DNA from: a virus
Reading direction: 5' to 3' (one strand)
Virus record (IMG/VR): IMGVR_UViG_3300034082_001419
Coordinates: 57,495 to 121,494 of that record
Length of the DNA: 64,000 nucleotides
Positions within the stretch are counted from its first letter, which is position 1, and every line of letters starts with the position of its first letter. The translations under genes were made by a program, and so were the position numbers. Under the pieces are notes generated by a model. That model was not told the DNA's origin. It worked only from the letters and a program-made list of their open reading frames with translations, and did no database searches. Below, in pieces: positions 3,222-57,566 of this stretch.

Positions 3222-4070
3222 TTAAGCTCTATTATAAACAAACTGAACAATTGTCCAACAAGCACCTGGATACTCAGCAAGTTTAACAGTTTGATCTAAT
3301 GCATATGGAAATGCTAACTCTTGATCTTCTGATTGTATTTTAACTCCAGTTACACAATTAGTTAATTCATATGTATAGTAACAAGGAATATCACCATCAC
3401 AAAAAAGATTATTAGTAAAAATCTGATAATCAGTTCCCGTAACTGATGGATATGAACTTGAACAAATTACAGCTGGTGCATCAGTAGTTGTAAACTCACT
3501 ATAGCCATCAAAATATGTTATAACACCTGTTCCAGTAACTGTATAACAAATTGGTTCACATTGGTCACAATATGCATCACCATCAATTATTACAGTAGTA
3601 AGATCACCAACAGTTTCTGGTACAACTGTAACATACCAACATGGATTTGGTTCCAAGTAAGTATATGCTAATTGATTAATATAGTTTATACAATCTGGAC
3701 ATTCTTGATAATCAGTATATATTACATCACTATTTATACAATTAACTAATTTATATTTATACTGTGAACAACTACTACATGTATTATAATAACCTTCACT
3801 TGCTTGAGCAATTTGAGCATTAGTTATTGCATTTGGATAATAACCTTCTCCTACTGCTTGCCAACAATACGGAGATATATTACCATTAATGTTTAACTTG
3901 TAAACTTTATTAAATGTATAAGTTAATACTGGTTGTATTATTCTATAAACAGTATTTACTGTTGGATCACAAGATACAAAATACACAACAGTTGAACCAG
4001 CATAATCTTCTAAATCAAAATCAAAATTGAGAAATCTTTCTCTTTCACCTGTATATAAATCTAATCTCAT
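3222..4070 (-). CDS. Cys-rich repeat virion protein (repeats paralogous to 2163-3200)
   Basis: YKLVNC, YELTNC, CW and CxxC units. Confidence 0.6.
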   Translation of the reverse strand: MRLDLYTGERERFLNFDFDLEDYAGSTVVYFVSCDPTVNTVYRIIQPVLTYTFNKVYKLNINGNISPYCWQAVGEGYYPNAITNAQIAQASEGYYNTCSSCSQYKYKLVNCINSDVIYTDYQECPDCINYINQLAYTYLEPNPCWYVTVVPETVGDLTTVIIDGDAYCDQCEPICYTVTGTGVITYFDGYSEFTTTDAPAVICSSSYPSVTGTDYQIFTNNLFCDGDIPCYYTYELTNCVTGVKIQSEDQELAFPYALDQTVKLAEYPGACWTIVQFVYNRA

Positions 4071-7425: not shown

Positions 7426-7896
7426 TTATTTCTTTTTAACTTTCTTAATAACAGATTTTTTCTTAATACTTCCACCTTTTCTATACTGTGCATCTTCAAT
7501 ATCTTCAGCAGTCTTTAAAGGTCCATTATTAAAATCTTCTCTCCAACCTTTAGATCTTAGTTGTTTTTCTTCTTCATTTCTTAAGCTTTGTTCTAAATCA
7601 GCACTAGAACCCCATGAAGTAGCACCTTGTGTATTAGCAATTTTTGATTTTTGTCTATCTATATAGTCATTTGAATATGGTCCATTAAGTTTTAAAGCAG
7701 TTCCTGGATATTTTGTATCCATATATTTTGCAGTATTGCTATCCATAGGACCAACTGTTTGACCATTTTGAGCTTTTTTTAAATTTTGTTTTAATTCAGG
7801 TTTAGCTTTACCTTTTAATGAATTAAAAAATCCAAGTGGATTACCCAAAGGATTTCCCAATGGTCCCATTTTTGGTTTTGTTGTTTTCTTGTTCAT
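7426..7896 (-). CDS. Basic protein with KAQxG and RKGG motifs
   Basis: Lys-rich termini; motifs shared with neighbouring ORFs. Confidence 0.6.
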   Translation of the reverse strand: MNKKTTKPKMGPLGNPLGNPLGFFNSLKGKAKPELKQNLKKAQNGQTVGPMDSNTAKYMDTKYPGTALKLNGPYSNDYIDRQKSKIANTQGATSWGSSADLEQSLRNEEEKQLRSKGWREDFNNGPLKTAEDIEDAQYRKGGSIKKKSVIKKVKKK

Positions 7897-7898
7897 AA

Positions 7899-8411
7899 TT
7901 ATTTCTTTTTAGATTTTAGAGTACCCCCCTTTTTTTTAATCATTCCTGTACCAACATTTGGTGAAGGGTCAGTATTATAGAATTGTTTTGCAAAACTATC
8001 TCCTTTATCTAGTTTTTTAGAAACACTATCCCAACCTTTATTATTTTTACCACCTTTAAAGGGAACTTCTTCAAATTGCTCATAATATGGATATTTTTTA
8101 TTTAGAGCAGCAACTTGATCTGCTAAAGGAACAATAGGTCCTTGTGGTTGATAATTTTTTATAAGATTACCATAATCTCTTTGAGCTTCTTCACTACTAT
8201 TATTATCTCTTATACCTGCAGCAGCTTGTCTAGATCTTGCATCATCCATTGCTCTTTTTTCAGGATTATTAAACCAATAATTATTTTGTGGTCCAACAGT
8301 ATTACCTGTTTGTGCTTTAGGTAATGATTTTTTATATGCAGTTTGTCTAGCTTCATTAGCTTTTCTAAATGCAGTAATAGGGTGTTCTTTAGTTATTGTT
8401 TTCTTAGCCAT
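7899..8411 (-). CDS. Basic protein with KAQxG and KKGG motifs
   Basis: KAQTGNTVGP vs KAQNGQTVGP of the neighbour; ends KKKGGTLKSKKK. Confidence 0.6.
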   Translation of the reverse strand: MAKKTITKEHPITAFRKANEARQTAYKKSLPKAQTGNTVGPQNNYWFNNPEKRAMDDARSRQAAAGIRDNNSSEEAQRDYGNLIKNYQPQGPIVPLADQVAALNKKYPYYEQFEEVPFKGGKNNKGWDSVSKKLDKGDSFAKQFYNTDPSPNVGTGMIKKKGGTLKSKKK

Positions 8412-8422
8412 TGTATATTATT

Positions 8423-8932
8423 TTAACAGTTCCACTTTCTTAAAGCTAATGCTTTTCTTGTAGGTCTACCTTTTTCATCTTTCATAGGTCCATCTACTCC
8501 AGACATTCTGCTACAGAAACTCTTGCGTCTCTTAGCATCTTTGCTTTTAGGATCAAGTTTAGAAGGTTTAGTTGTAACAGCCATCTTAAGTTTACTACCA
8601 GGATTAGCGGCTCTATATGAAGCCACTCCTTTAGCATTTAAGCCGCCTGTTTTATTCTTACCTTCTGATCTTGTCCAAGCAGGAGTGCTGCCCCCACTTT
8701 TCAATTTGGGCATTTTATCATTTTGTTTATGCCAATCTTTTTCAGCTTTAACACCTTGTTTAACTGTCTTAGCATTTGCTGTTCTTGTTAAACTAATTTT
8801 ATCATAACTACCTTTATTTTTATTAGTATGGTTAACCATTATGTCACCAACTTTACCTTCACCTCTTTTAGTAGTTTTTTTATACACTAGATGTTTTTCA
8901 TCACCTGTAGTAAGTTTAACTTTAGTAGCCAT
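8423..8932 (-). CDS. Basic protein with C-terminal DUF6321-like domain
   Basis: AWTRSEGKNKTGGLNAKG...RRKSFCSRM...ALRKWNC. Confidence 0.7.
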   Translation of the reverse strand: MATKVKLTTGDEKHLVYKKTTKRGEGKVGDIMVNHTNKNKGSYDKISLTRTANAKTVKQGVKAEKDWHKQNDKMPKLKSGGSTPAWTRSEGKNKTGGLNAKGVASYRAANPGSKLKMAVTTKPSKLDPKSKDAKRRKSFCSRMSGVDGPMKDEKGRPTRKALALRKWNC

Positions 8933-8934
8933 AA

Positions 8935-9087
8935 CTATTTCTTTTTAGTTGTTGCTTTAATCTTCTTTTCTTGTTTAAGCATTTGTGTAGTAGGTGCTTT
9001 ACCAGAACCTTTATTAGCTCTGATATTATCCCAAAGTCCTCTTTGAGATACACTACCATCTTTACGCTTTAACATTTGCTTTGCCAT
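8935..9087 (-). CDS. Small basic protein, 50 aa
   Basis: Read by hand: MAKQMLKRKDGSVSQRGLWDNIRANKGSGKAPTTQMLKQEKKIKATTKKK; fills the gap exactly. Confidence 0.7.
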   Translation of the reverse strand: MAKQMLKRKDGSVSQRGLWDNIRANKGSGKAPTTQMLKQEKKIKATTKKK

Positions 9088-9088
9088 T

Positions 9089-9706
9089 TTACTTTACTTT
9101 TTTAAGTCTAGGGTTTGCAGCTTTAGCTTTAGCACTAGCTTTTCTAGCAGATGATGCTAATATAGCTCCAGCAGCTTCTTTACTAATACCTTGTTTAGCA
9201 GCTATCTTAGATTGTACAGCTTTGAATCCTGGATGAGTAGTTCCACCTGATTTTTTATTTTCAAGTGCTTGCTTATCAAGTAATTTCTTACCTTTCATAG
9301 CACCTAAACCAAGTGCACCTATAGTAGCAACAGTTCCAAGAACTTTACCAACTACAGGTCCAACTTTACTCATTGCTCTACTTCTATTATTTTTTCTTTG
9401 TGCTTTAGCATAACCACATCCTTTTGGCTTACCAGGTCCACAACTTTCAGTCATACCACCAACTTCTGCTTTAGGTATAACTTTCTTACCAATAAGAATA
9501 TCAGCTTTAGTTATTTTACCATCTTTATTTAAATCTGGAAAAGATTTAGTAGACCCACCTTTTCTACCAAATCCCATTTGAGATGACGTACCCATATTTT
9601 CTTGAGGAATACCATACATATTAACTGGTGCTTTTGCTACTGCAGAACCACCTAATTTCATTTTCTTAGTACCTCCACAAGAAGCACATCCTAGTTTCTT
9701 TGCCAT
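9089..9706 (-). CDS. Basic protein with several xxGG motifs and an EF-hand/dockerin-like loop
   Basis: FPDLNKDGKITKADIL; KMKLGG, RKGG, AEVGG, KSGG. Confidence 0.65.
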   Translation of the reverse strand: MAKKLGCASCGGTKKMKLGGSAVAKAPVNMYGIPQENMGTSSQMGFGRKGGSTKSFPDLNKDGKITKADILIGKKVIPKAEVGGMTESCGPGKPKGCGYAKAQRKNNRSRAMSKVGPVVGKVLGTVATIGALGLGAMKGKKLLDKQALENKKSGGTTHPGFKAVQSKIAAKQGISKEAAGAILASSARKASAKAKAANPRLKKVK

Positions 9707-9717
9707 GATCTTTCAGA

Positions 9718-9888
9718 TTAACATTTTTTACCTTTACTACCACCCATCTTCATTTTAGGTGCAGCTTGTGGTTTATTAACTTTTCCACATGATTTACCTG
9801 ATGCATTTTTTAATGCATATACTGGAGCGTTGGTTCCACCAACTCTACCTGTTGCAACTTTTTGTGCGTTTACTTTTGCGTTAGCCAT
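9718..9888 (-). CDS. Small basic protein, 56 aa
   Basis: Read by hand: MANAKVNAQKVATGRVGG...PKMKMGGSKGKKC. Confidence 0.65.
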   Translation of the reverse strand: MANAKVNAQKVATGRVGGTNAPVYALKNASGKSCGKVNKPQAAPKMKMGGSKGKKC

Positions 9889-9900
9889 GATATATAGTTT

Positions 9901-9931
9901 AAAAAAAGTATACCAGCATTACTGGTATACT
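9901..9931 (-). terminator. Intrinsic terminator
   Basis: agtataccag/ctggtatact stem plus A7 tract. Confidence 0.7.
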
Positions 9932-9941
9932 CTAGAGTTAT

Positions 9942-10952
9942 TTACATATTCCACAGTTTTTCAACTTGTGTGTTTAAATCTTTTAATACATCCTCATTTA
10001 AAGGACTTTTCAAAAACTCAATTACATCTGATACATTTCTACCAAGTAAGCTATTAGACTTAGCATGATAAATATAACCATCTGCCTTATTTATAATATA
10101 CTTAAAAAATATGGAATCTTTAACAATTGCTTTGATTTTTAATGACTCCATGTCTAAAGCAGCAGCTTCTAAGAAACCTTTTGCAGCTCTTTCTTTATTA
10201 CCTTCTGTACCTTCACCATTAATGTGTCTATCCATATTGTCATAGATAACATCATTAGGTGTATGTTTTTTATACTGTATACTTGCAGTATCAACAGACT
10301 TAGCAATGTAGAATAACTTAGTACTATTTTTATCAAATAGTTTTTGTAATTCAGCAAGTGCTTTATTTTTAAGTTTTTTGTATTCAGTTTTAATACCACT
10401 TGTCTCAGTTACTTTATCTAAGTAAAATTTTGGCGGTACTGCTTTTGATCTTGCATCATCATAACTTCTTGATATAAGTGAGAATCCACCAGCTTCAACA
10501 GCATATAGTTTTATTCTATCATATGGATTTGCAGGATCTAGAAATACTGGATCATTACCACATGACATTGTTATCTTATTCCAGAAATCTTTGTTATCTG
10601 GTTTAAGCAATTTTACCTCATTCCAGAATGTTGGACTCTCTACATCCAATACATTAGCTGCTAGTTCTTTCTCTAGTTCAGCAACGGCAATTCTGATTTC
10701 TCTTGATTTTGCAGCTTTCTCTTCTGCAGGTAATAATCTGATCTCAGGAGCAAACTCATTTAATCCTGTTACATATCTTACTACTCCATTTTGCTCTAAA
10801 CAAGCAAGTTGCTCATAATGTTTTACACCATCAAATAATGATTGGCCATAATGTTCTAATCCCATGTTTGACATTGAATTGTCAAAGTAAGGTTTGATTG
10901 AGATCTTGTTACTCTTGTTTGTGTTAAATACTTCTACGTGTGTAAAGTCCAT
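9942..10952 (-). CDS. Conserved capsid-module protein (crAss gene-75-like)
   Basis: Immediately downstream of MCP, as in crAss-like gene order. Confidence 0.5.
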   Translation of the reverse strand: MDFTHVEVFNTNKSNKISIKPYFDNSMSNMGLEHYGQSLFDGVKHYEQLACLEQNGVVRYVTGLNEFAPEIRLLPAEEKAAKSREIRIAVAELEKELAANVLDVESPTFWNEVKLLKPDNKDFWNKITMSCGNDPVFLDPANPYDRIKLYAVEAGGFSLISRSYDDARSKAVPPKFYLDKVTETSGIKTEYKKLKNKALAELQKLFDKNSTKLFYIAKSVDTASIQYKKHTPNDVIYDNMDRHINGEGTEGNKERAAKGFLEAAALDMESLKIKAIVKDSIFFKYIINKADGYIYHAKSNSLLGRNVSDVIEFLKSPLNEDVLKDLNTQVEKLWNM

Positions 10953-25465: not shown

Positions 25466-27082
25466 TTATGCTAAAATTACTTCTGTGCTATCTATTCTAC
25501 AACTCCATTTGATAGTTGTTGTTAATTTAGCTCCTGATTTAACTGATAAACCACCTAATGTTGTATTAGCTGTTAGTGTTGGTATAGTGCCTAATGTAAT
25601 TGTATCTAAAACTAAATTCATGTTACTTAATGGTAAAATTGTACTCGATGCTGTTGTACCCCTTACTACTACACAATCAAAGTCATAACAAGTTACATTT
25701 GTAGATGCTGTTTGTTTTCCTATTATAGAACCTCTAACTCTTATGGCTTCATTATTTTGCAATGTTAAACAAATAGCTGTACCACCTTGCGTGGATAGTT
25801 CAACAGCTGTATTAGTTGTACTTGTTTTTCCAGTAGATGAAATTGAGCATTGAGTTTCCCCCTTAAGATAGGGGCCCGCAGTATCTTGAGAAGCGACTGA
25901 TATTCTTGAAGCAACTCCTTTTGTCGAACATTGATAACCAGTAGCTAAACTTCCAGTAGCATCAGCAGTATTGAAAACACCAAAGGCTACTGAACCTAAT
26001 GCAGTAGCTGAAGTTAACTCACCAATTGACCCTCCAAATGCAAATGAACAAGTCCCTGAAGCTGTTGCATTTCCACCTCCAGCTAATGAATTTAGTCCTG
26101 AAGCAGACCCACCGTTTAAAGCTATTGCATTTGTGTTACTAGCAGAGCCTTTATTAAGCACAAATGAGTCTGTACCAGAACTAGCATATCCACTTCCTGT
26201 TCCAATTGAAATTGAACCACTATTAGTTGCTGAAAGAACTCTACCAATTGCTATTGAATTAGAACCTTTAGCTTCAACTTGTGTTCCAATTGCAACTGAA
26301 TTAACACCTTGAGCTCCAGCATAGTAATTCATAGAGCCACTCATTAATTCAATAGCTCCTGTTCCTCTTTTACCACCATTTGTTATACTACCATCAGGTA
26401 TATGCCCAACAATAAAAGCTCCAGTACCCTTTGGTAATATTGCAAAATCACCATTAGTTGTTCCTGTTACCGCTGTTAAACTATCAACAGGTACGGTTGC
26501 GTTCGGTGATGTTGTGTTTTGCGCTTCAGTGAAGTACGTTAAACCACCTGATGCTGTAGTCCATTGCGTTGTTCCAGAGCCTAAATAACCCAAAACTTGA
26601 CCTGTTGTTGGTGCAACTGTTGGTAAGGTATAAGCATTATTAATTACTACATTCCCATCAACATTAATACCAAATTTTTCAGTAGTAGTGTTGGTATCTA
26701 CAATTTTAAATATTCTTGAAGTGGGAAATGGGGTAAGGCTTCCACTATTTACATTTATATTGAAACCTGTTGTGTCACCTAAAACTGGATCTACATTGTG
26801 TATTTCTCTCCTTACATTATCAAAAGTTAAAATTTTTGAGTCACCGCTAACTGTTCTGTCTGCTGTTAAAGTGCCATTTGCATTATAAATATTTACACCT
26901 GAACCACCAGCTCCAAATATTTCAATTATAGCTCCTGTTGAGTCTTTATAATGAACTAATTTATCTGTTAAATCAAAGAAATATGTACTATTTGATACAG
27001 AAGCCCAATCTGATGAACTTGCTGTAGTTACTGTATATTTAGTACCTACTACGGGATTACCCGAAACTGTTACTACCGCCAT
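25466..27082 (-). CDS. Tail fibre/adhesin with YadA-head-like repeats
   Basis: SVAIG / SIAIG / SFAFG ~14-aa repeats. Confidence 0.7.
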   Translation of the reverse strand: MAVVTVSGNPVVGTKYTVTTASSSDWASVSNSTYFFDLTDKLVHYKDSTGAIIEIFGAGGSGVNIYNANGTLTADRTVSGDSKILTFDNVRREIHNVDPVLGDTTGFNINVNSGSLTPFPTSRIFKIVDTNTTTEKFGINVDGNVVINNAYTLPTVAPTTGQVLGYLGSGTTQWTTASGGLTYFTEAQNTTSPNATVPVDSLTAVTGTTNGDFAILPKGTGAFIVGHIPDGSITNGGKRGTGAIELMSGSMNYYAGAQGVNSVAIGTQVEAKGSNSIAIGRVLSATNSGSISIGTGSGYASSGTDSFVLNKGSASNTNAIALNGGSASGLNSLAGGGNATASGTCSFAFGGSIGELTSATALGSVAFGVFNTADATGSLATGYQCSTKGVASRISVASQDTAGPYLKGETQCSISSTGKTSTTNTAVELSTQGGTAICLTLQNNEAIRVRGSIIGKQTASTNVTCYDFDCVVVRGTTASSTILPLSNMNLVLDTITLGTIPTLTANTTLGGLSVKSGAKLTTTIKWSCRIDSTEVILA

Positions 27083-28903: not shown

Positions 28904-31900
28904 TTAAAAATTATAATCTATACTTAATAATTCACTTCCTCCCCCTAAAACTGTTGGAATAAATCCGCCACCACCTGAAAATGTACCTATAGAACTGATA
29001 TTAGTGGTAGATGTAAAGGTAGGTGTTACCCCTGTATTTGCAACGAAAACTAATTGATTTCCAGAAAATGATCCTACACATTGATATATTAATATAGACG
29101 CCTGTATTTGAGTTACAATTTCAGAAGTTATTGTTGAAGTTGTTTTACCAGCACCAATAACAGAAATAGTTACTGTATTTGTACCGTCAAATATAGTTAC
29201 AGATGTATCTATATTCGCACTGGTTACTACCATTCTATTCATTATACCTGTGCCACTTGTGGAGTTTGCATTTATTTTTCCATTAGACATTGCATACCCT
29301 AATGTTATATTTTTAGAGGGTGTTGTATTTACAGGATATGTGACAAAAAGATTTGTAGGAGAATAAAGCCTACCATTATTTACAAAAACTCCCAAAGATT
29401 TACTTATCAATGGTGCAAATTCATTAATTCCTTTATTGTAGTAAATAGTTCCGTTATTTATTAATGTACCATTATTGTTTACAATTAGTGATGCACCAAC
29501 TGCCGTTAAATTTCCTGTTGTAATATAACCATTATTTGTAAATTTTCCTGCCCCAGTATAAGTTAAGCCACCTAAAAGAATGATACCACTATTAATAAAT
29601 TCACCGCCAGCTATTACTACAGTCATAAGTCTTGTTCCATGTGGCCCAGCTTGATTTCCATTATATTTAATAGACCCAGAATTTACGGTAACAGTGCCAT
29701 TAATACTTCCGTTTATATTATTTCCAAGACTATTTGACAATCCACTAACAACCACATTCCCAATAATAGCCCCATTAACAATTGATGGAGAACTACTTAA
29801 CGTAACAGTATTTACTGTTAATGAACCATAAATATTTACTGATCTAACACCATCTCCAGAGTCTATTATTGCAGTTGTTCCTGTAATATTTGCGTATATA
29901 TTTACAGGCCCAATTAGATTATAACTACCCAAAATAGTACCATTAATATTTCCTGATGCACCGCCTGTTATAGCCAACACACTAGAAGGTGTTACAATTT
30001 TTGTTGTTACGTCCGAATATCCTGCGTTATATCTTAATCCCCCTAATAATCCATAAGCATTTCCATTCCAAGTGAAATTATTAGTTACATTTATGTATGA
30101 TATAGAACCAAATCGACAATCAAACATATCACATACTATAGATAAATTTGTAAATGATAAGGTAAATGAACCAGTTCCCAAATTAACGGTAGTACAAATA
30201 GAATAATAATTGCCTAAATCCATAAAACCATCAATACCAGAAAAAGCATTTGGATTTATTAAAACACTATTTGCGTGTGTGCCATAGGTATTGCCTAAAT
30301 TTAAATAAAATGGAATTAATATATTACTTGTAAAAGTGAATAAGGATTGGTTACCGTATGATATTGTACCACCTAATTTTTTACTGTTAATATAAAAACC
30401 ATGTTTGTAATAATTTCCAGTTGCAACAAAACTACCGCTTAATACAACTTCATAAACAGTCCACCAAGTAGCCGTAATAGTAGCACTTGCCGTACACGCT
30501 TTACTTAATACAATTGTATTAGAAGTTTTACTAACTACAATTGAACCATAGGGTATTCCAGCACCTGTAATATATTGACCTACTTTAATATTTGTAGTAT
30601 CTGAAACAGCCGTTAATGTTGCACTTGTACTCGTTGTTGTTGCTGTTACCGTTCCTGTATTAGTTATATTTCCTAAGGCATATTCTGGCGTTAAATAAGG
30701 AGTGTTTATATCACCTCTACCTGTTGTTGCATTAATTCCGTTAACAGAATCTATATATATTGTATTTGCTTGTGGAATTGCTGACCCTCCATCTACCCAA
30801 CTAACAACCCCAGCACCATTTGTTTTTAAAATTTGATTTGCTGTACCATCAACTATTGGAAATGTATATGCATTATTTATTGTAAGACCACTAGAAGAAA
30901 TATTAACTCCAAAAAGAGAAGAAATATTATCACTTATTTGTAATGTTATACTTGCTGGTGTTTGTTGAATATTAGTATTACCTGATGTATCACCAACATT
31001 TAACATATTTTGTGTTAATGTTTGTTCTATCAATGAAGAAGAACCAGTACCATTTGTTTGATAAAAACGTATAATATTTCCTGATCCGTTGAATCTTAAA
31101 TTATTAGTTCCAAGTGATACTATTCTGTTTGCTGTTAAAGTACCGTCTGTATTGTAAATATTTACAGAAGAAGGTGTAGGTATATTTAATGTATTTGATA
31201 TTAATGTTGCTGCACCTGATGTTCCTATAGTAGTAAGAGTAATTGCATTTTGTTTTGCATTAAATATTGCAAAGTCAGAAGAAGATAAATAACCATTTGT
31301 TGATCCTGATGCTTGAGTAATACTTATTGCTGGAGTTGTTCCTCCAGATGATTGTATTGGTGCGGTACCAGTAACATTAGTTACAGCATTATTAGGAACT
31401 ACTTGATTTAATGTTGTTAACCCAACTGAATAATGTTGAGATCCCTCTGTTCTAAATGTAGCTGTTTGAGATACACCTGTAATATTCTCCATTGAGATTT
31501 TTACTACTATTCTATCTGATGTAAGTACTGTAGATGCAGGGATTACAGCATCACAAATATACATTGTAGTTACTGTTGGCATATTAGTTACAACAACTGG
31601 ATCTAATGTAAGTAGTAATGTTTCAATACCACCTAAATCTCTTTTATATACCGTAGGCCTAATTATCCAATTCTGACCTGTTGTTCCTGCATTAAAGTGT
31701 AAAAAGAATTGCCATAAACCTGTTGGAATTTGAGTTGTATTTGGAACTCCAATGGGTGTTTGAAATTCAGCAACTATTGTTGTAGCTCCACCGGCTATTG
31801 TAAAAGGAACAGTTTGTTCTGCTATACTTGTTGCAACTGATGAAAATTCTTTATAAGGTGTCTGTGTTACAGACTGATTTAAATAATATGTTGTAGTACC

Positions 31901-34381: not shown

Positions 34382-34420
34382 GATTTTTATTTTTTGTAAA
34401 GTTAATATATTTATTTTTTA

Positions 34421-35221
34421 TTATGCTAATAAAATTCTTTGTGCAACACCATTAATAATTACATCCCAGTATTTAGTTTGAGTTTGTGCTGCTGTAACTA
34501 CTGTTCCCGCATTAGTTCCTACTGAACCAACAACAAATTGATTTGTATTTGTTGATACAGCATCTATACCAATTACAATTGAATTATTATGATTTGCTCT
34601 TGCATTTGAACCAATTGAAATTGTAAAATTTGCATTACTGGAAGCAAAACCAGCTTTAGAACCAATAGCCGTATTATCTGATCCAGTAGTATTATTTTTT
34701 AATGCTTGCCAACCTAATGCAACATTATTAGAACCAACCGTATTAGTATATAATGCTCCTTGACCTATTGCTACGTTAATGGAACCTGTTGTAGTAGCAA
34801 TTCCACAATCTGCTCCCATAATGATGTTACCACCACTAGTAGTATTACTTGATAAAGCATTTTGACCAATTGCAATATTTGTTGAACTAAACATACCATA
34901 TGGTAAAGCATTTTTTCCAATTGCAATATTATTAGTACTTCCATAAATAAAATTTACACCAGAACCTGAACCAATTGCTACATTATAATTTGAATCTTCA
35001 TCTGTATAAAGTCCAGTATTATAACCAATATTAACATTTTGTCCAACTACATAAGTAATAACAAAACTACTTGATAAATCTTCTACTGATATAGCACCAG
35101 GCAAATATCCATCTTTTCTTCTATTATCTTTTAACCCTACAGGGATAAGAGTTTGAGAAGCATCTACTGTTGTTACTTGTCTCTTGCTCTTAAGCCAAGA
35201 GATAAAATTTAAAACATCCAT
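34421..35221 (-). CDS. Fibre protein, MDxLNFISW family, with YadA-like repeats
   Basis: N-terminus shared with 36853-37893 and 37905-38744; NxAIGxxAL repeats. Confidence 0.7.
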   Translation of the reverse strand: MDVLNFISWLKSKRQVTTVDASQTLIPVGLKDNRRKDGYLPGAISVEDLSSSFVITYVVGQNVNIGYNTGLYTDEDSNYNVAIGSGSGVNFIYGSTNNIAIGKNALPYGMFSSTNIAIGQNALSSNTTSGGNIIMGADCGIATTTGSINVAIGQGALYTNTVGSNNVALGWQALKNNTTGSDNTAIGSKAGFASSNANFTISIGSNARANHNNSIVIGIDAVSTNTNQFVVGSVGTNAGTVVTAAQTQTKYWDVIINGVAQRILLA

Positions 35222-35248
35222 TTTATTTATTTATTTTTAAGTTAATTA

Positions 35249-36829
35249 TTATGCTAATAAGATTTTTCTTGCTACTCCATTGATAACTACATTCCATACA
35301 TTAGAAGAAGTGTTAACTTCTGATGTTACTGTTCCTGCGTTAATACTTGATGAACCCACTACAAATTGATTAGATGCAGTAGAATTAGCACCAAAACCAA
35401 GTATAATTGAACCACTAAAGTTATTTGTTTGAGTAGATGCACCAATTACTGTATTATTACTAGCAGTAGAATTTCCACCTCCTGCACTTTGTCCAATAGC
35501 AATGTTATTTGTACCAGTAGTATTTTGTCCTAATGAAGAACTGCCACATGCAGTATTTCCTGTTCCTGTTGTATTTACTAGCAATGTTCCAGAACCTACA
35601 GCAGTATTGCTTGTACCTGTAGATGTTGAATATAATGAACTTGTACCAATTCCAACATTTCCAGTTCCAGTCGTATTAGTATACAGAGCTTGATTTCCTA
35701 TTGCAACATTGTTATCTGCATTAATATTTCTAAATAAAGTTTGATAACCAATAGCAACATTATTATTTCCAGTAACATTGTCTCTCAATGTTCTATAACC
35801 TAATGCAACATTATATTGTCCAGATATTAAAGTTGCAGGAGATATTTGAAAACCTGTTCCAGCACCAATTAAGGTACTTGTCATTACAGTTGTTAAATTT
35901 TTAAAACCGTAACCATTTGGACTAAAGCCAGTTGTAGTTAATGTACATGCTGTTACAATACCTCCTGTTACAGTTATATTAACTTTTGGATATTGTGGTG
36001 TTGCAGTTCCTGAAAAATATTCTAATACTATATCTGTATATGATCCGTCTGTATATCCTGATCCTGGTGTAATTGCACCAAATGAACCAACTCCAGTACT
36101 ATTACTATCAAGTGCATTAGAACCCATTGCATGATTATAATTTCCAAGAATATTACTTCCTAAACTATTGGAACCTATAGCAACATTTCCTATACCAGCA
36201 GTATTTACACCTAATGCTAGATAACCAATACCAGTATTATTACTACCAGTCGTATTTAATAATGCATATGTTCCAATAGCAGTATTATAATTTGCACTAA
36301 TATTAGTAAATAAGGCTTGATGACCAATTGCAGTATTAAAGTTACCTGATGTATTTCCTCTTAATGCACTGTTTCCAAGTGAAGTATTATTAATACCAAT
36401 TTGATTACTAACTAATGCGGAATTTCCTATTGCTGTATTACTATTACCTGTTGTATTAGCAGCTAATGCTCCTTGTCCATATGATAAATTACCTACAATA
36501 TTATTATTACCATTACACCATACTGTTTTATCACTTTCATTATATTCAAACCAATAAGGCAATGATCCACCAGCATAGTTAGGAATATTTAATGTAGATC
36601 CTATTAACGTAGCTGCACCAGATGAACCAGTTGTAGTTAAAGTAATTGGAGGAGGTAATAATCCAGCAATACTACTAACTAAATCAGTTGTAGTTATTAA
36701 TGCTGGTTGATAATTACCATAGAAGTTTGAATCTCTTACACCAATAGTAAACAAGTCTGTTGCTTCTAATAGTGTTCTAACCTTTCTAGTATCAATAAGG
36801 TTTGTGTAGTTTGTTATATTGTTTAACAT
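35249..36829 (-). CDS. Fibre protein with many NxAIGxxAL repeats
   Basis: ~17-aa repeats; C-terminus shared with 34421-35221. Confidence 0.7.
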   Translation of the reverse strand: MLNNITNYTNLIDTRKVRTLLEATDLFTIGVRDSNFYGNYQPALITTTDLVSSIAGLLPPPITLTTTGSSGAATLIGSTLNIPNYAGGSLPYWFEYNESDKTVWCNGNNNIVGNLSYGQGALAANTTGNSNTAIGNSALVSNQIGINNTSLGNSALRGNTSGNFNTAIGHQALFTNISANYNTAIGTYALLNTTGSNNTGIGYLALGVNTAGIGNVAIGSNSLGSNILGNYNHAMGSNALDSNSTGVGSFGAITPGSGYTDGSYTDIVLEYFSGTATPQYPKVNITVTGGIVTACTLTTTGFSPNGYGFKNLTTVMTSTLIGAGTGFQISPATLISGQYNVALGYRTLRDNVTGNNNVAIGYQTLFRNINADNNVAIGNQALYTNTTGTGNVGIGTSSLYSTSTGTSNTAVGSGTLLVNTTGTGNTACGSSSLGQNTTGTNNIAIGQSAGGGNSTASNNTVIGASTQTNNFSGSIILGFGANSTASNQFVVGSSSINAGTVTSEVNTSSNVWNVVINGVARKILLA

Positions 36830-49188: not shown

Positions 49189-49581
49189 ATGGAAAAGAAA
49201 AAAAAGTACTGCTCAGGGTGTGATTCTGAGCAGTATATTTGGAAAGCACATGAAGGCAATAAGTATTGCAAAAACTGTTGGGGTAAGATACAATCTAAAG
49301 ATCCAGATCATAAGGTTATACCTCAAGTATCAGCTAAGAGAAAGAAACTTGATGCTGAATATTTACTACTAAGAAAAAAGCATATGGAGAATAATGCATT
49401 ATGTCAAGTAAAAGTTGGTGGTTGTACTAATCTCGGATCAGACATACACCATACTTTTGCAGGATCAAATAGAAATGCGTTTTATTTAATACAAAGCACC
49501 TGGCTTGTTGTTTGCCGTAACTGTCATGATCATATTCATATGAATCCAGCAGAAGCAAGAACAATGGGTTGGTTAAAATAA
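49189..49581 (+). CDS. Zn-finger / HNH nuclease-like protein
   Basis: CxxC...CxxC; DIHH...CRNCHDHIH. Confidence 0.7.
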   Translation: MEKKKKYCSGCDSEQYIWKAHEGNKYCKNCWGKIQSKDPDHKVIPQVSAKRKKLDAEYLLLRKKHMENNALCQVKVGGCTNLGSDIHHTFAGSNRNAFYLIQSTWLVVCRNCHDHIHMNPAEARTMGWLK

Positions 49582-49619
49582 ACTGAAAAAACAATAACTG
49601 AAATTAAAAAACTGAAAAG

Positions 49620-50360
49620 ATGAAAAAAAATGTAATTCAAATAGCAACAACAACAGAGTATTCAATGTTTAATTATTTACCAATGAATAGAAATATTGAT
49701 TCACTACAAGTTGAAAGATTAGTACAAAGTATAAGAGAAATGGGTGTTACCAGACAAGCAATCTGTATTAAAACAGCAGTAATTGATGGTGAATTAAAAA
49801 CATATGTAATTGATGGTCAACATTTAATACACGCATGTCAAAGAGAAGCAGTACCTGTAGAATACAGATACATTGAAGTTATTGATAAAGCTGACATTAT
49901 TAAAAAAATAGCTTTTTATAATAATTCATCTAAGTCATGGCAATTAATGGATTATGTTAATGCATGGATGTTTGATGTTCCTGATTATCTTTCTCTTAAA
50001 AAGTTTAAGAATTTATATAATCTTGAACCATTAATGATTGCTAATATCTGTAATAGTGAAATTGGATATAATGGAGTATCTTCAGCTAGTCAATTAATAA
50101 AAACAGGTGCATTTAGAATTAGTAATGTAAATGCAGAAGCAATGTGTAAAGATTTTAGTGATATGTTTATTAAGATTGGTAAAGCTGATAGATGGGTTAA
50201 ACATCAATTTTTAAAAGTATTTATTAAATCTTATAATCATCCTAGTTATAATCATAATGCTACATTAGCTAATGTTGATAAAAACATTAGTCAAATTAAA
50301 GCTATGACTGATATAACTATAGCTATGACTTTTATACAAAAAAATGTATTTGTTGTATAA
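49620..50360 (+). CDS. ParB/Srx-like N-terminal domain protein
   Basis: NRxI...VIDGQH. Confidence 0.65.
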   Translation: MKKNVIQIATTTEYSMFNYLPMNRNIDSLQVERLVQSIREMGVTRQAICIKTAVIDGELKTYVIDGQHLIHACQREAVPVEYRYIEVIDKADIIKKIAFYNNSSKSWQLMDYVNAWMFDVPDYLSLKKFKNLYNLEPLMIANICNSEIGYNGVSSASQLIKTGAFRISNVNAEAMCKDFSDMFIKIGKADRWVKHQFLKVFIKSYNHPSYNHNATLANVDKNISQIKAMTDITIAMTFIQKNVFVV

Positions 50361-50380
50361 TTAATTTTAAAACTATAAAA

Positions 50381-50470
50381 ATGACAAGAGAAGAGATACA
50401 AAAGTTAGCATTGGATGCTACTGATAAGAAAAGAAAATGTGGATTAAGTTTAGCTACTGGTGGTTTGTAA
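50381..50470 (+). pseudogene. Orphaned duplicate 5' end of the SF2 helicase gene (29 codons)
   Basis: MTREEIQKLALDATDKKRKCGLSLATGGL* vs MTREKIQELALNATNNKKRCSLILATGVGKT: 18 of the first 27 residues identical. Confidence 0.85.
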
Positions 50471-50495
50471 AAAATAAATAATATCCGTATCTTTG
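50464..50495 (+). promoter_or_regulatory. Bacteroidota sigma70-type promoter for the GIY-YIG gene
   Basis: TTTG (50464-50467), 20-nt spacer, TATCTTTG (50488-50495); matches TTTG-N19-21-TAnnTTTG. Confidence 0.7.
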
Positions 50496-50499
50496 TAAT

Positions 50500-51273
50500 A
50501 TGGAAATGAAACAAGGATACGGATATAAAATTTGTGGTATATATAAAATTACTAATGGTGTAAATAATAAAATATATATTGGCAGTAGTACAAACATTTA
50601 TTATAGACTGAGAAGACATAAGTCAGATCTATTAAATCAACAGCATAAAAATCTTTATTTGCAAAATGCATACAATAAATATGGAAAAACCTGCTTTAAA
50701 GTAGACATAATTGAAATATGTAGCATTGATCAAATATTTATTAGAGAGCAATATTATATAGATACACTTAATCCAGATTATAATATAAGAAGAGATGTAA
50801 TCACAAATAAAATGAGTGATGAAACTAAAAAGAAAATCTCTGAAATAATGAAAGAAAAGTCTAAAGCTGGTATAATAGTAAATCATTTAAATACTGATAA
50901 GAAAAAAGAAATTGATATATATGATTGTAATTGTAATCTTATTAAAAAGTTTAATGGATATAATGAAGCAGGTAGATATTTAAAAAGTATTTATCCCGCA
51001 TTTAAACCAAATTCAACATCACAAATAATTAAAAGTAAAAGTGGAAAATATAAAGATTATTATTTAATCCTACCTGATAAAAAATGTAATAACACAATTA
51101 CAAGGTCTGATGCATTCACAATTCAAATGATTAATACCATAACAGATGAAATGATTGTTTTTGATAGTGCTATGAAAGCTGCAAAATATTTAAATTGCGC
51201 TGAAAGTAGTGTTTTAAAGTCAATAAAAAAATCAAGGTTGTTGTTAAAAAAATATAAATTAATAAAATTATGA
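50500..51273 (+). CDS. GIY-YIG homing endonuclease with NUMOD-like DNA-binding repeats
   Basis: CGIYKITN...IYIGSS...R...H...REQYYI...YNI; MSDETKKKIS; FDSAMKAAKYL. Confidence 0.9.
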   Translation: MEMKQGYGYKICGIYKITNGVNNKIYIGSSTNIYYRLRRHKSDLLNQQHKNLYLQNAYNKYGKTCFKVDIIEICSIDQIFIREQYYIDTLNPDYNIRRDVITNKMSDETKKKISEIMKEKSKAGIIVNHLNTDKKKEIDIYDCNCNLIKKFNGYNEAGRYLKSIYPAFKPNSTSQIIKSKSGKYKDYYLILPDKKCNNTITRSDAFTIQMINTITDEMIVFDSAMKAAKYLNCAESSVLKSIKKSRLLLKKYKLIKL

Positions 51274-52370
51274 CCAGAGAAAAAATTCAAGAACTTGCAT
51301 TAAATGCAACTAATAATAAAAAGCGTTGTTCATTGATTCTTGCCACAGGTGTTGGTAAGACTTTAGTAGGTCTTATGCATATGGAAAGAAATCTGACTCC
51401 ATTAATGAATGTGCTTATTGTTGCTCCTAAGCTTAGTATTTTTACATCTTGGAGAACTGAAGCTATTAAGTTTAATAAGTCTCACTTACTTGACACAGCA
51501 CAATTCACTACTTACTTAAGTTTGAATAAACTAGATCCAAGAGAGTATGATATGATTTACTTTGATGAAGCTCACTCATTGTTACCTTCACATAGAGAAT
51601 TTTTAGATGAGTATGACGGTAAGATCTTAGGTCTTACCGGTACTCCTCCTAAAATGGTAAATAGTGAGAAAGGTGAGATGATGCAAGAGTTCTATCCTAT
51701 ATGTTATGAATACTTAACTGATGATGCTATTAATGATAATATCTTAAATGATTATAAAATTATTGTGCATCAACTTAGGTTAGACAATAGTAATAAGAAT
51801 GTTAAAGCAGGTAGTAAGTATAAATCATTCTTTACTACTGAATTAGCTAATTATAATTATTGGTGCAGCAGAATAGAGGATTCTAGACCGGGAAAAGAGC
51901 AGCAAATTTCAAGAGTAATGAGGATGAAGGCTATGATGGCTTTTCCAAGTAAAGAAGCTTATACTAAGATATTGAGTAACTCAATTAAATCTAAGTGTAT
52001 TATATTTGCTAATACTCAAGAGCAAGCTGATCAATTATGTAACTATAGTTATCATAGTAATAATCCAGAATCTAGTGATAATCTTAATATGTTTAAGTCA
52101 GGTAATATTACTAAACTATCTTGTGTATTACAATTAAGTGAGGGTATTAATATTCCTAATCTTAAACAATGTATTATACTACATGCTTATGGTAATGAGC
52201 GTAAGGCTAGTCAAAGAATCGGGAGATGTTTGAGATTATCTGTTGATGAAACAGCTACTATTCACATTCTATGTTATATGGATACTATAGATCAGAAATG
52301 GGTTACTGAAGCATTATCTGGTTTTGATCAGGATAAAATAGAGTGGAAAGATTTTAATATTAAGTTATAA
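51270..52370 (+). CDS. SF2 DEAD/DEAH-box helicase
   Basis: ATGVGKT, DEAH, LTGTP, EGINIP, QRIGR. Confidence 0.9.
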   Translation: MTREKIQELALNATNNKKRCSLILATGVGKTLVGLMHMERNLTPLMNVLIVAPKLSIFTSWRTEAIKFNKSHLLDTAQFTTYLSLNKLDPREYDMIYFDEAHSLLPSHREFLDEYDGKILGLTGTPPKMVNSEKGEMMQEFYPICYEYLTDDAINDNILNDYKIIVHQLRLDNSNKNVKAGSKYKSFFTTELANYNYWCSRIEDSRPGKEQQISRVMRMKAMMAFPSKEAYTKILSNSIKSKCIIFANTQEQADQLCNYSYHSNNPESSDNLNMFKSGNITKLSCVLQLSEGINIPNLKQCIILHAYGNERKASQRIGRCLRLSVDETATIHILCYMDTIDQKWVTEALSGFDQDKIEWKDFNIKL

Positions 52371-52383
52371 CAGCATTTTAAAT

Positions 52384-52695
52384 ATGTATATAAGAGATTT
52401 ATTTGATATTTTATCAGAAGGTGAGAAAGAATTAATGTATGATCTATGTAGAATATGGAAAAAGCAAGAAGAAGAAAAAAGAAAAAAACTAAGAGAGGAA
52501 AATAAAAAAATATTATTAGACTTAAGTGATAACAAAATGAGTGCAAGATTATTAACAGCTCTATTAGATTACTATGAAAATCATAAAGTGAATGAAGAAC
52601 TCATGCTTGAACATATTTGTTTAAAAAATGTGAGAAATATTGGTAAAGTAGGTATAGAAGAGTTTAATAAATTATTTTTTTACAATCATGAGTAG
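52384..52695 (+). CDS. RNA polymerase alpha-CTD-like protein
   Basis: MSARLLTAL...LKNVRNIGKVGIEEF resembles the alpha-CTD LSVRxxNxL...NxGxKSxxE pattern. Confidence 0.5.
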   Translation: MYIRDLFDILSEGEKELMYDLCRIWKKQEEEKRKKLREENKKILLDLSDNKMSARLLTALLDYYENHKVNEELMLEHICLKNVRNIGKVGIEEFNKLFFYNHE

Positions 52696-52906: not shown

Positions 52907-54578
52907 CAGTAGGTGATAAAATGAAAGCTTTAATTATGGCAGATGACTATAATAAAGTAAGAGTACATGTATCAGATGAATTTATCAATATGGCTAGAAC
53001 TATGTTAGGAGATTTTAAATATATTGAGGAAAAAGAAGAAAAGTATCAGGAATTAGTTAAATCTTTTAAACATGAAGATTCACATTGAGATAAGAAATGA
53101 TATTAACCCTGCTCTTGCACTTACTAAAGTAAAACAAGTAATTGAGCAGGGTAAAATATCTAATGATGGTAAAAACTATTGTTGGATAACTGAATGGTCT
53201 GATGATATAGTAGTATACACAAGGGATAATAGGAAATCAGACTGTTTTGTAGTCTATAAAAAAGGACAATATGGCAAATAAAACAGCAGTAGAATTTGTA
53301 GCTTATGAACTTATGAACTTAGATATAGCTTACGAAATGGGTCTTGAGAAAAATGAGTTTCATAAGCTAAGACAAGAAATTATTAAGAAAGCCAAAGAAA
53401 TGGAAAAACAACAGATAATGGATGCTTACAATGATGCTGAGGACAAATGTGAATACTTTATTGAAGAACATGCTTGGCAAAGACACCATCTTTTAAGTGA
53501 AAATTATTATAAACAAACCTTTAAATCAGAATAAGATGAAACAGTATATACCGTACATAGTAATACTACTAATATCATATTTAGTAGTAGCATTTGTAAA
53601 GATGCAATTTAATCCTGCATATTGGGAACAAGAGGCAAGATTTGCCTTAATGGTAATAGTATTAGTATTAATGGCTCTATATAGCTTTTTTAAATTTATA
53701 GAATAGTATGAAAGGATTTGAATTAGTAAAACGTGAAGACCATTGGGCTTTATACAATGAAGACGGTCATAAAATTGCTGCTACTATAGATGGTTGTAAT
53801 AGTAAACTATCTAAAGAAAACTGTGATGAGATATTTGGAATATTTGATGTTGGAGCATTAGCTTTAGAAGAATGTAATAACACTGACCCATTAAGATTAG
53901 ATAGCGTAAAGTATAAACAAGACCCTTATTTTAGGATAGGTTATTTAAAAGGTTACAACAAAGCAATGGAGTTGAATAAAGACAAGTTGTTTACTGAGGA
54001 TGATTTATATAGAGTATTCTTAATTAATTCAGCAGGAAATAACACTACATTAAGACACTTCTTTGAAGAAACTGTACTTTCAATGTTTGAACAACCAACA
54101 GAAATTGAGGTTGAGATTGTTTCTGAATTAGCTTATACTGTTAATGAGAATAGTGAAACTGAAATGATGCCAGAACCACATATTAAACTTGATGAAAATG
54201 GTTGTTTAATACTTAAAAAGAAATAAGATGGAAAAACCATTTCACACAATAATTATTCAACGTGTTGGTAAGTCAGAGCAATTAACAGCTGAAGAAATAA
54301 ATAAAATGATTACTGATAATAGACTGTTAACTGAAGAGTATGAACAAAGTAAAAAGAAAAGCATGAAAACAATCACAAAAGCAGTGATACCGTTATCAGA
54401 TATCCCTGTAAAACTAAGAAAAAACTCATTGTTTAAGAAGGTAAGAGTACATACATACATTGAGTGTCACATGGAAGGTAAAGGTAAAGAATCAGATGAT
54501 GATTTAACAGCATGGTTACGTGAAATGTATCCAACATTGACAAGAAAAATTAGTTTTTTAATACACATTGATATATGA
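52903..54578 (+). CDS. Run of six small hypothetical early genes (52903, 53072, 53271, 53536, 53708, 54228)
   Basis: Tightly packed ORFs; 53271 carries a TAVE...AKEMEKQQI motif also seen in 57893. Confidence 0.55.
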
Positions 54579-56742: not shown

Positions 56743-57566
56743 AAAATCAAGTAATTAAATGTCTTACACCAGAACATGGTAAAAAGATAATAGAGTATTG
56801 GAAATCAAAAGGTGTTGATACTGGTATTAAAACAGGTAAACTTTGTGAATCTGATAATGACTATTATATTTATTATGGTGTTATTAATGGTAAATTTGAT
56901 AACTACTCATCAATTGATGTACAAAGAGAAAATGCTGAAATAATTGAGTTACCAGAAGATGAATTTGACATGACTACTAATGAAGGTAGATCAGCTTATG
57001 CTAAAAAACATTATCCAGTAGGGACTAAATATAAATCTTTATATAGTGGTCAAGAATTAATTGTTGGAAGTTATGATGGTCATTTATGTCTCCAACCAGA
57101 AGGTATATGGAGCGTATATGACTTTCTTACCAATAAATGGGCTGAGATTATTGAAGATAAACAAGAAGAAAAAGTTATGGAAACACAAAAATTATCAAGA
57201 AAAGGTCTTAAAGAAATACATTCAGTAGCTTGTTCAGCATGGAGAGAACAATTAGAAGCAATGGGTTATAGAAATCCATTAGAAGATTATATTGAATTAA
57301 CACAAGAACAAGTTGATACAATGTTTAAAGCTTGCACTAAAGAGCAATTACCAATTGTATCTAAGTATCTTAAACAAGATGATGGTAGTGTTGATATAAG
57401 TAAAGTTACATATGGTAATCATGGTATACTTTTAGGTAGTGCTTATATTGTTAGACATGATGCTTTTACTAGTATAAAAAATGGTTTTTGGTTAAATCCT
57501 GACTTTAATTGGGAATTTAAAATAAATGGTGATTATCAATATTTAATACCAACTAAAAAGAAATAG
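56739..57566 (+). CDS. Modular hypothetical protein
   Basis: AKKHYPVGTKY...KWAEII module. Confidence 0.6.
   Translation: MKNQVIKCLTPEHGKKIIEYWKSKGVDTGIKTGKLCESDNDYYIYYGVINGKFDNYSSIDVQRENAEIIELPEDEFDMTTNEGRSAYAKKHYPVGTKYKSLYSGQELIVGSYDGHLCLQPEGIWSVYDFLTNKWAEIIEDKQEEKVMETQKLSRKGLKEIHSVACSAWREQLEAMGYRNPLEDYIELTQEQVDTMFKACTKEQLPIVSKYLKQDDGSVDISKVTYGNHGILLGSAYIVRHDAFTSIKNGFWLNPDFNWEFKINGDYQYLIPTKKK

Follow-up and report, generated by a model that had tools for sequence, protein, structure and literature searches.

A probable intron-free homing cassette at the Walker A codons of a lake-phage helicase gene, carrying a recoded replacement gene start

We analysed a 64,000-nucleotide (nt) stretch of viral DNA, hereafter the window (positions 57,495 to 121,494 of IMG/VR record IMGVR_UViG_3300034082_001419), in which the start of a helicase gene occurs twice and a GIY-YIG homing endonuclease gene lies between the two copies. 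The record is a complete virus of 121,494 bp with terminal repeats, its source being lake-water metagenomes, and all features of the locus are found on the plus strand. The first copy of the helicase start is an orphan open reading frame (ORF) of 29 codons (50381-50470) that ends in the residues L-A-T-G-G-L. Its codons 1-27 extend to position 50461 and are followed by GGT TTG TAA, with the stop codon at 50468-50470. After a spacer of 29 nt, the endonuclease ORF (50500-51273) encodes 257 amino acids (aa), and its stop codon is overlapped by the ATG of the second, resident helicase start at 51270. The resident start comprises codons 1-28 (51270-51353) and continues in frame into the helicase body, which begins with the GKT of the Walker A motif (51354-52370). 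The complete helicase ORF (51270-52370) is intact and encodes a protein of 366 aa that carries ResIII and Helicase_C domains (Pfam), matches PHROG 16 (DNA helicase) and belongs to superfamily 2 (SF2).

Between the two helicase starts, 18/27 aa and 55/81 nt are identical, with 9 codons differing synonymously and 9 non-synonymously; the eight codons directly before the junction differ at 10 of 24 nt. When the left flank was locally aligned with the helicase 5' end, the score was z = 11.4 against shuffles, and the orphan matched a profile of helicase starts in nhmmer with E = 5e-14, the alignment ending at profile position 82. The similarity of the two starts is therefore far above chance. Further, the junctions are spanned, with 0 differences, by contigs of four additional lake-metagenome runs (X9 record 21, corresponding to 50137-51194; X14 record 4, 50732-51455; X17 record 12, 51104-51572; X19 record 18, 51250-51403), so that the arrangement is not an assembly artefact. 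An empty-site allele would show up as a contig joined across the inserted block, and no such contig was found in runs X9, X14, X17 and X19. The one skip seen in X14 was unrelated, with a length of 395 nt and a 20-nt side, while X9 had no contig over approximately 51195-51356 and one contig ending at 51357, such uncovered stretches being no evidence either way.

Assignment of the intervening gene is based on several resources. Pfam searches returned GIY-YIG (PF01541, E = 3.4e-11, 43.7 bits at a cut-off of 22.6) and, at residues 212-238, NUMOD1 (PF07453, E = 4.7e-07, 30.3 bits at a cut-off of 22.8). The I-TevI catalytic domain (PDB 1MK0/1LN0) was matched over residues 12-95 with E about 8e-11, and PHROG 314, annotated as 'homing endonuclease', with E = 2e-24. 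Copies of the endonuclease in two related loci, L011 and L062, are 91% and 54% identical at the aa level. The GIY and YIG motifs are invariant across three endonuclease copies, as are R, H, E and N positions which we take to be the catalytic residues of I-TevI. These results bear out an earlier note on this DNA, which had described a doubled helicase N-terminus with 18/27 shared aa and synonymous codon differences, a GIY-YIG gene between the two starts and a second start overlapping the endonuclease stop.

A search for further endonuclease copies in the window found none. One GIY-YIG paralogue with 38% aa identity is present elsewhere in the same phage genome, outside the window (L193 1191-3423, equivalent to about 7700-9950 of G000:C1; L193 ORF 1444-2199). 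It is flanked by a 73-aa ORF with an AAA-type Walker A motif and a 319-aa ORF holding the rest of the ATPase. The ATPase gene is either split in two or contains an undetected intron; an Rfam scan of this locus at E <= 1 returned no intron.

A scan of viral contigs yielded 242 relatives of the helicase, and the best 80 were retained; counts of helicase relatives given below are subsets of these. The named relatives are distant (helicases of Flavobacterium, Cellulophaga and crAss-like phages at <=34% aa identity) and were kept out of the junction analysis. Two relatives, L001 and L011, resolved the ancestry of the locus. L001 lacks an endonuclease; 22 of 1017 nt in its helicase body deviate from the window (97.8% identity). 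The orphan is identical to the first 27 codons of L001 at 27/27 aa and 79/81 nt whereas the resident start matches them at 57/81 nt. The endonuclease-bearing L011 agrees with the resident start at 80/81 nt and 35/35 aa and with the inserted block at all but 50 of 886 nt (94.4% identity), while the helicase bodies show 179 differences in 1017 nt (82.4% identity). At informative sites, those distinguishing L001 from L011, the window is L011-like in 41 of 43 cases between 51225 and 51352; from 51356 onwards it is L001-like at 46 consecutive sites and then at nearly all later ones. On the left side, homology to L001 stops at 50461, just ahead of the GGT TTG TAA that closes the orphan at the border, and homology to L011 begins at approximately 50468, from where the two sequences are collinear. 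This places the borders of the inserted block (50462-51353) to within about 3 nt on the right, where the switch falls between 51352 and 51356, and about 6 nt on the left. The window thus contains a helicase gene of the L001 type with a block of the L011 type, ca. 890 bp in length, between codons 27 and 29, within the Walker A motif.

Several predictions of the earlier note can be evaluated on this basis. It had expected the orphan to be closer to endonuclease-free relatives than the resident start is, the junction to map at GGT-G and the element to carry its own 5' fragment of the helicase gene. All of this is in good agreement with the comparison: the orphan is the better match to L001, L001 homology ends at 50461 with the right switch at 51352-51356, and the L011-type resident start is joined in frame to an L001-like body. 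The locus shows the features of a homing element: close relatives differ in whether they carry the insert, its ancestry is foreign and its borders are sharp. The orphan also occupies the native position of the helicase start. Upstream of it lies a ParB-like gene (49620-50360; PHROG 12305, E = 3.4e-19), a homologue of which ends 10-26 nt before the helicase start in 27/80 related loci by manual count. The ParB-like gene is the native upstream neighbour of the helicase.

The same arrangement recurs in other phages. A single-protein query for endonuclease loci gave no matches and a query with a 3-sequence alignment was used instead. It found 179 stretches, of which the best 80 were retained and the best 15 examined; the remaining 65 matched in the catalytic domain only. 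Among the 15 examined, all near-full-length endonuclease relatives (13/13, 43-90% aa identity) are located directly upstream of a homologue of this helicase, and the two others are partial matches without adjoining helicase, one of them at a contig end. L081 and L083 are contigs of L011 and L062, respectively, and L085/L086, L087/L088 and L091/L092 are near-duplicates. For the detection of orphans, a DNA profile of the first 32 helicase codons was compared by nhmmer with the 300-nt flank on the left of every endonuclease gene. Significant orphans were found in 8/14 loci, window included. Seven of these eight alignments (window, L084, L085, L086, L087, L088 and L089, all at E <= 6e-10) end at profile position 81-82, and the eighth represents a partial orphan in L090 (E 0.007). 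In the window, L084, L085/L086, L087/L088 and L089 the orphans are still open reading frames. The flanks of endonuclease-free loci served as controls: an orphan at E < 0.01 was detected in 0/76 upstream and 0/70 far-upstream flanks, and none fell below E 0.9. The expectation that endonuclease-free relatives would lack the duplication was thus borne out (0/76). A second case of discordant ancestry is provided by L087, whose orphan shares 19-24/28 aa with the N-termini of seven endonuclease-free relatives while its resident start shares 13-16/27 with the same relatives, the orphan being the better match in 7/7 comparisons. L084 adds a third case: its helicase body is 99% aa identical to that of the endonuclease-free L077, whereas the first ~130 nt differ densely from L077, which is not among its six best N-terminal matches.

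Three further observations concern the helicase start or the helicase gene in relatives. In L016 (3162-4153) and L057 (3159-4153) a different GIY-YIG gene, with 36-40% aa identity over the N-terminal part, abuts and overlaps the start of a helicase with 5-6 extra N-terminal codons; no orphan was found at these two loci (z about 0). L002, L003 and L010 encode a 65-aa ORF at 3802-3999, about 200 nt upstream of the helicase, that starts with helicase-like residues and gave no significant nhmmer match (E 1.9-3.7). In L090 (2169-4336) the helicase match is broken by ca. 1.1 kb between query residues 317 and 327, so that the C-terminal part of this gene may contain a further insertion.

The left end of the inserted block holds several candidate regulatory features. 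The word TTTGTAAAA is kept in nearly all copies and is found after the orphan or its trace in 13/14 loci, L081 being different; it contains TTTG and, in several copies, an in-frame TAA. A promoter-like motif, TTTG-N20-TATCTTTG, was identified at 50464-50495 by pattern match and is called promoter-like based on what we take to be the Bacteroidota promoter consensus. RNA folding further predicted a stable hairpin with a 16-bp stem around the endonuclease start codon (50481-50526). The fold of 50470-50535 has a calculated energy of -22.5 kcal/mol (z -8.7), and 0/200 shuffles were as stable. Its 5' arm holds the -7-like box, its stem encloses the start codon, and the stem is kept in 6 cassette copies. 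Hairpins that sequester the start codon next to a promoter have been described for segB and Aeh1 mobE, and I-TevI is controlled by a hairpin together with a late promoter as well as by a homing-site-like operator over its own promoter (PMC2988022). By analogy with these T4 endonuclease genes, the hairpin and the promoter-like motif may regulate the endonuclease.

Based on these results, we consider it likely that the inserted block is an intron-free homing cassette which sits in the helicase ORF at the Walker A codons and brings along a recoded replacement for the gene start. Such a cassette would have three parts, namely a short left end with regulatory features, a gene for an I-TevI-like GIY-YIG endonuclease and foreign, recoded helicase codons 1-28. 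Its architecture, the sharp chimeric borders, the recurrence at the same codon in diverged phages and the absence from endonuclease-free relatives are direct observations. In a mixed infection, helicase alleles that lack the endonuclease would be cut by it no more than a few tens of bp from codon 27/28 (near codons 27-29). The break would then be repaired from the cassette-bearing genome and the block copied in the process. While the right end would pair in the helicase body, the left end, consisting of the recipient codons 1-27, would either pair with the donor orphan or be joined illegitimately at microhomology. One-sided illegitimate repair at microhomology has a documented precedent in T4 intron homing (PMC2988022). 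With the left end of the break located within the gene, the recipient gene start would survive, retained as a stub that could not be translated into helicase. Helicase would from then on be expressed from the replacement start of the cassette, reading in frame into the resident Walker A motif. The 84 nt of helicase sequence within the block would keep the gene whole, and the different spelling of the replacement start may shield the new allele from being cut again. From the sequence data, we infer cleavage and its position, the immunity of the recoded copy and the function of the orphan as a homology arm, as well as the lack of splicing.

Several observations weigh against parts of this interpretation. 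In L081/L011 the cassette is present without a significant orphan and its upstream flank is an unrelated 67-aa ORF, so that the orphan is dispensable once the cassette is installed. Short remnants in L082, L083 and L091-L093 were recognized by eye only, have no nhmmer support and are at most suggestive, and L081 shows hardly any trace. The cassette can thus be maintained without the orphan, which is no more than a putative homology arm. Another point is the structure of L084. The foreign tract in L084 extends about 50-100 nt beyond the Walker A motif and the left flank is only 79.5% identical to L077; the locus appears to show a recombination edge near the site and not a clean insertion. Further, the stretch between the full orphan and the endonuclease of L084 resembles the short remnant of L082/L083 (by eye; without nhmmer support). 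Nested orphans, if this is what they are, could mean two successive invasions, as judged by visual comparison only. The regulatory features of the left end are also subject to doubt. The pattern TTTG-N20-TAnnTTTG has 3 matches in the window compared with 3.14 expected by chance. The promoter-like motif is accordingly not statistically supported, and the perfect host-type promoter of the earlier note could not be established. In case of the hairpin, changes among the 6 cassette copies are one-sided only and no compensatory pairs were found among them.

A 16-nt leader shared between loci was rejected as proof of an orphan in L082/L083, since this word precedes many unrelated genes, and likewise as support for the nested reading of L084, since it proved to be a generic gene-start word. 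Words of this kind, 16-19 nt long and ending in ATG, stand ahead of many unrelated genes in relatives (many places, L002-L083) and once in the window (53520-53538); they are probably a shared translation or transcription start signal.

The strongest alternative explanation is an ordinary free-standing endonuclease upstream of the helicase, which would spread through intronless homing and co-convert the first 81 nt on the way. Orphans would then be occasional scars of one-sided illegitimate repair and play no role in spread. The cassette of L081/L011, which lacks an orphan and lies beside an unrelated 67-aa ORF, speaks for this account, as do the 6/14 loci without a significant orphan. One-sided illegitimate repair at microhomology is known from T4 intron homing (PMC2988022), and a short microhomology exists between the Walker A word and the left-end word of the cassette. 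However, random illegitimate joins should vary in position whereas the orphans of 7 loci, representing at least 5 diverged endonuclease lineages, break at profile position 81-82, and in 13/14 loci the orphan or its trace is followed by one and the same left-end word. Orphans which are open and undecayed in five lineages are likewise not easily explained as scars, and we regard this account as rather unlikely. A second alternative is a self-splicing intron, of group I or another type, that carries the endonuclease gene, with the orphan as an exon spliced to Walker A. Excision of 50462-51350 would in fact give an in-frame helicase with the native N-terminus, and phage group I introns commonly contain GIY-YIG genes (PMC2988022). 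Yet once the endonuclease ORF and the 84 helicase-like nt are subtracted, the block has only about 30 nt left, and with a complete in-frame replacement start splicing would be needless. The cassette of L081 has no upstream exon, and an in-frame stop closes the orphan at the border in the window, L085 and L089. An Rfam scan of 49500-52500 at E <= 10 found no intron family and only chance matches to snoRNA and miRNA families. Taken together, this makes an intron highly improbable. An intein was rejected as well: the orphan is closed by a stop at 50468-50470, and the endonuclease, a distinct ORF, is not fused in frame with the host protein.

We also considered a local duplication or an assembly chimera. 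The helicase 5' end could have been duplicated locally in tandem in one lineage, followed by divergence and insertion of an unrelated endonuclease, as replication slippage can yield duplications flanking insertions, or the locus could be a chimera, the window being a metagenomic assembly. However, the two copies are of different ancestry (79/81 nt to L001 for one, 80/81 nt to L011 for the other) and divergence changes stepwise at the borders. Further, the junctions are spanned by contigs with 0 differences from four other runs, and the same design is present on other contigs. There is very little chance that either of these explanations holds.

If the locus is indeed a homing cassette with a replacement gene start, a broader picture can be drawn, although we hold it only tentatively and with somewhat less than even confidence. 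Carrying a recoded replacement start may be a general, heritable lifestyle of phage homing endonucleases, in which the orphan is renewed with each invasion and serves a dual role. One part of this role would be that of a left homology arm. The other, suggested by the autorepression of I-TevI, would be that of an operator over the endonuclease promoter, formed by the orphan together with a left-end word that mimics Walker A; this operator function of the orphan/cassette junction is speculation. Strings of orphans, perhaps as in L084, might record successive invasions, and the strategy as a whole might be a third solution, beside introns and inteins, for occupying conserved motifs of essential genes.

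The closest known parallel are the mORF gene hybrids of fungal mitochondria, which have been described for atp6 of Allomyces macrogynus, atp6, atp9, cox2 and nad3 of Glomus sp., atp9 of Rhizopus and cox2 of Mortierella (PMC3630166). In these hybrids, as in the phage locus, a mobile endonuclease ORF brings along a foreign copy of one gene end, the hybrid gene stays intact and the native end is left as an adjacent duplicate that is closer to relatives than the inserted end (PMC3630166). The mORF hybrids do without splicing (PMC3630166), and the same probably applies here. In the phage locus, an endonuclease ORF lies beside a terminal segment of the helicase gene that is present twice, the native copy resembles relatives more closely both in the window and in L087 (7/7), and the inserted segment is in phase, leaving an open hybrid ORF for the predicted helicase. 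The differences are that mORF hybrids replace the C-terminus and reside in organelle genomes (PMC3630166) whereas here the N-terminus is replaced in a phage, and that the mORF is often in phase with the gene while our endonuclease occupies an upstream ORF of its own, which has a promoter-like motif, a hairpin and a stop that overlaps the new ATG. Replacement of a gene end is thus not new in principle.

Among phages, the free-standing Seg and Mob endonucleases of T4 are comparable in that a GIY-YIG gene lies outside any intron or intein. They spread by double-strand-break repair with co-conversion of neighbouring sequence (PMC2988022), which is also the pathway proposed here. In contrast, their genes are intergenic and the enzymes cut hundreds to thousands of bp away (PMC2988022) whereas the present cassette is inserted within an ORF, 81 nt from its start, and includes a replacement start; the part of the T4 account that deals with Seg and Mob describes no duplicated gene start (PMC2988022). 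I-TevI of the T4 td intron shares with our endonuclease an N-terminal GIY-YIG domain, a C-terminal DNA-binding module and a location in a conserved part of a gene of DNA metabolism. The differences are that the C-terminal module of our endonuclease matches NUMOD1 and that I-TevI lives in a self-splicing group I intron, no ribozyme being detected by Rfam at the helicase locus. Two other systems maintain gene function without splicing: Aeh1 mobE splits nrdA into two working pieces, and T4 mobA goes with the translational bypass of gene 60. As in our case, an endonuclease is placed within or against an essential gene and a linked feature preserves its function. While these systems depend on a split gene or on bypassing, the helicase would be made as a whole protein from one ORF, for which the cassette provides a new start. 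Full-text searches of the phage literature for an endonuclease with a duplicated or replacement gene start returned no such description among titles and abstracts.

Two additional features of the window lie outside the cassette. A 130-aa Cys/His-rich ORF (49189-49581) is conserved upstream in many relatives, with 81-93% nt identity in L001, L004, L010, L011 and L048, and has no Pfam or PHROG match. Self-BLAST of the window also detected diverged direct repeats of 68-85% identity (34402-34583 and 35222-35411; 31177-31245 and 36580-36648; 26850-26897 and 31119-31166).

In conclusion, the proposed design would extend the fungal mitochondrial strategy to phages and to the 5' ends of genes. It suggests that a homing endonuclease can occupy the codons of the P-loop, the most conserved and hence most reliable target in an essential phage gene, with neither a ribozyme nor an intein, as the cassette simply brings the short piece of the gene that separates it from the cut site. 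This may account for the short orphan ORFs of phage genomes and for gene starts that are locally discordant, which confuse gene calling, pangenome clustering and recombination analyses, and is of interest for both mobile-element research and phage genome annotation. Further, the orphan border and the ancestry switch, which here coincide within a few bases, may allow the target of an endonuclease to be predicted from sequence alone. The lake-phage family described here offers many natural before-and-after pairs with which this strategy can be tested.

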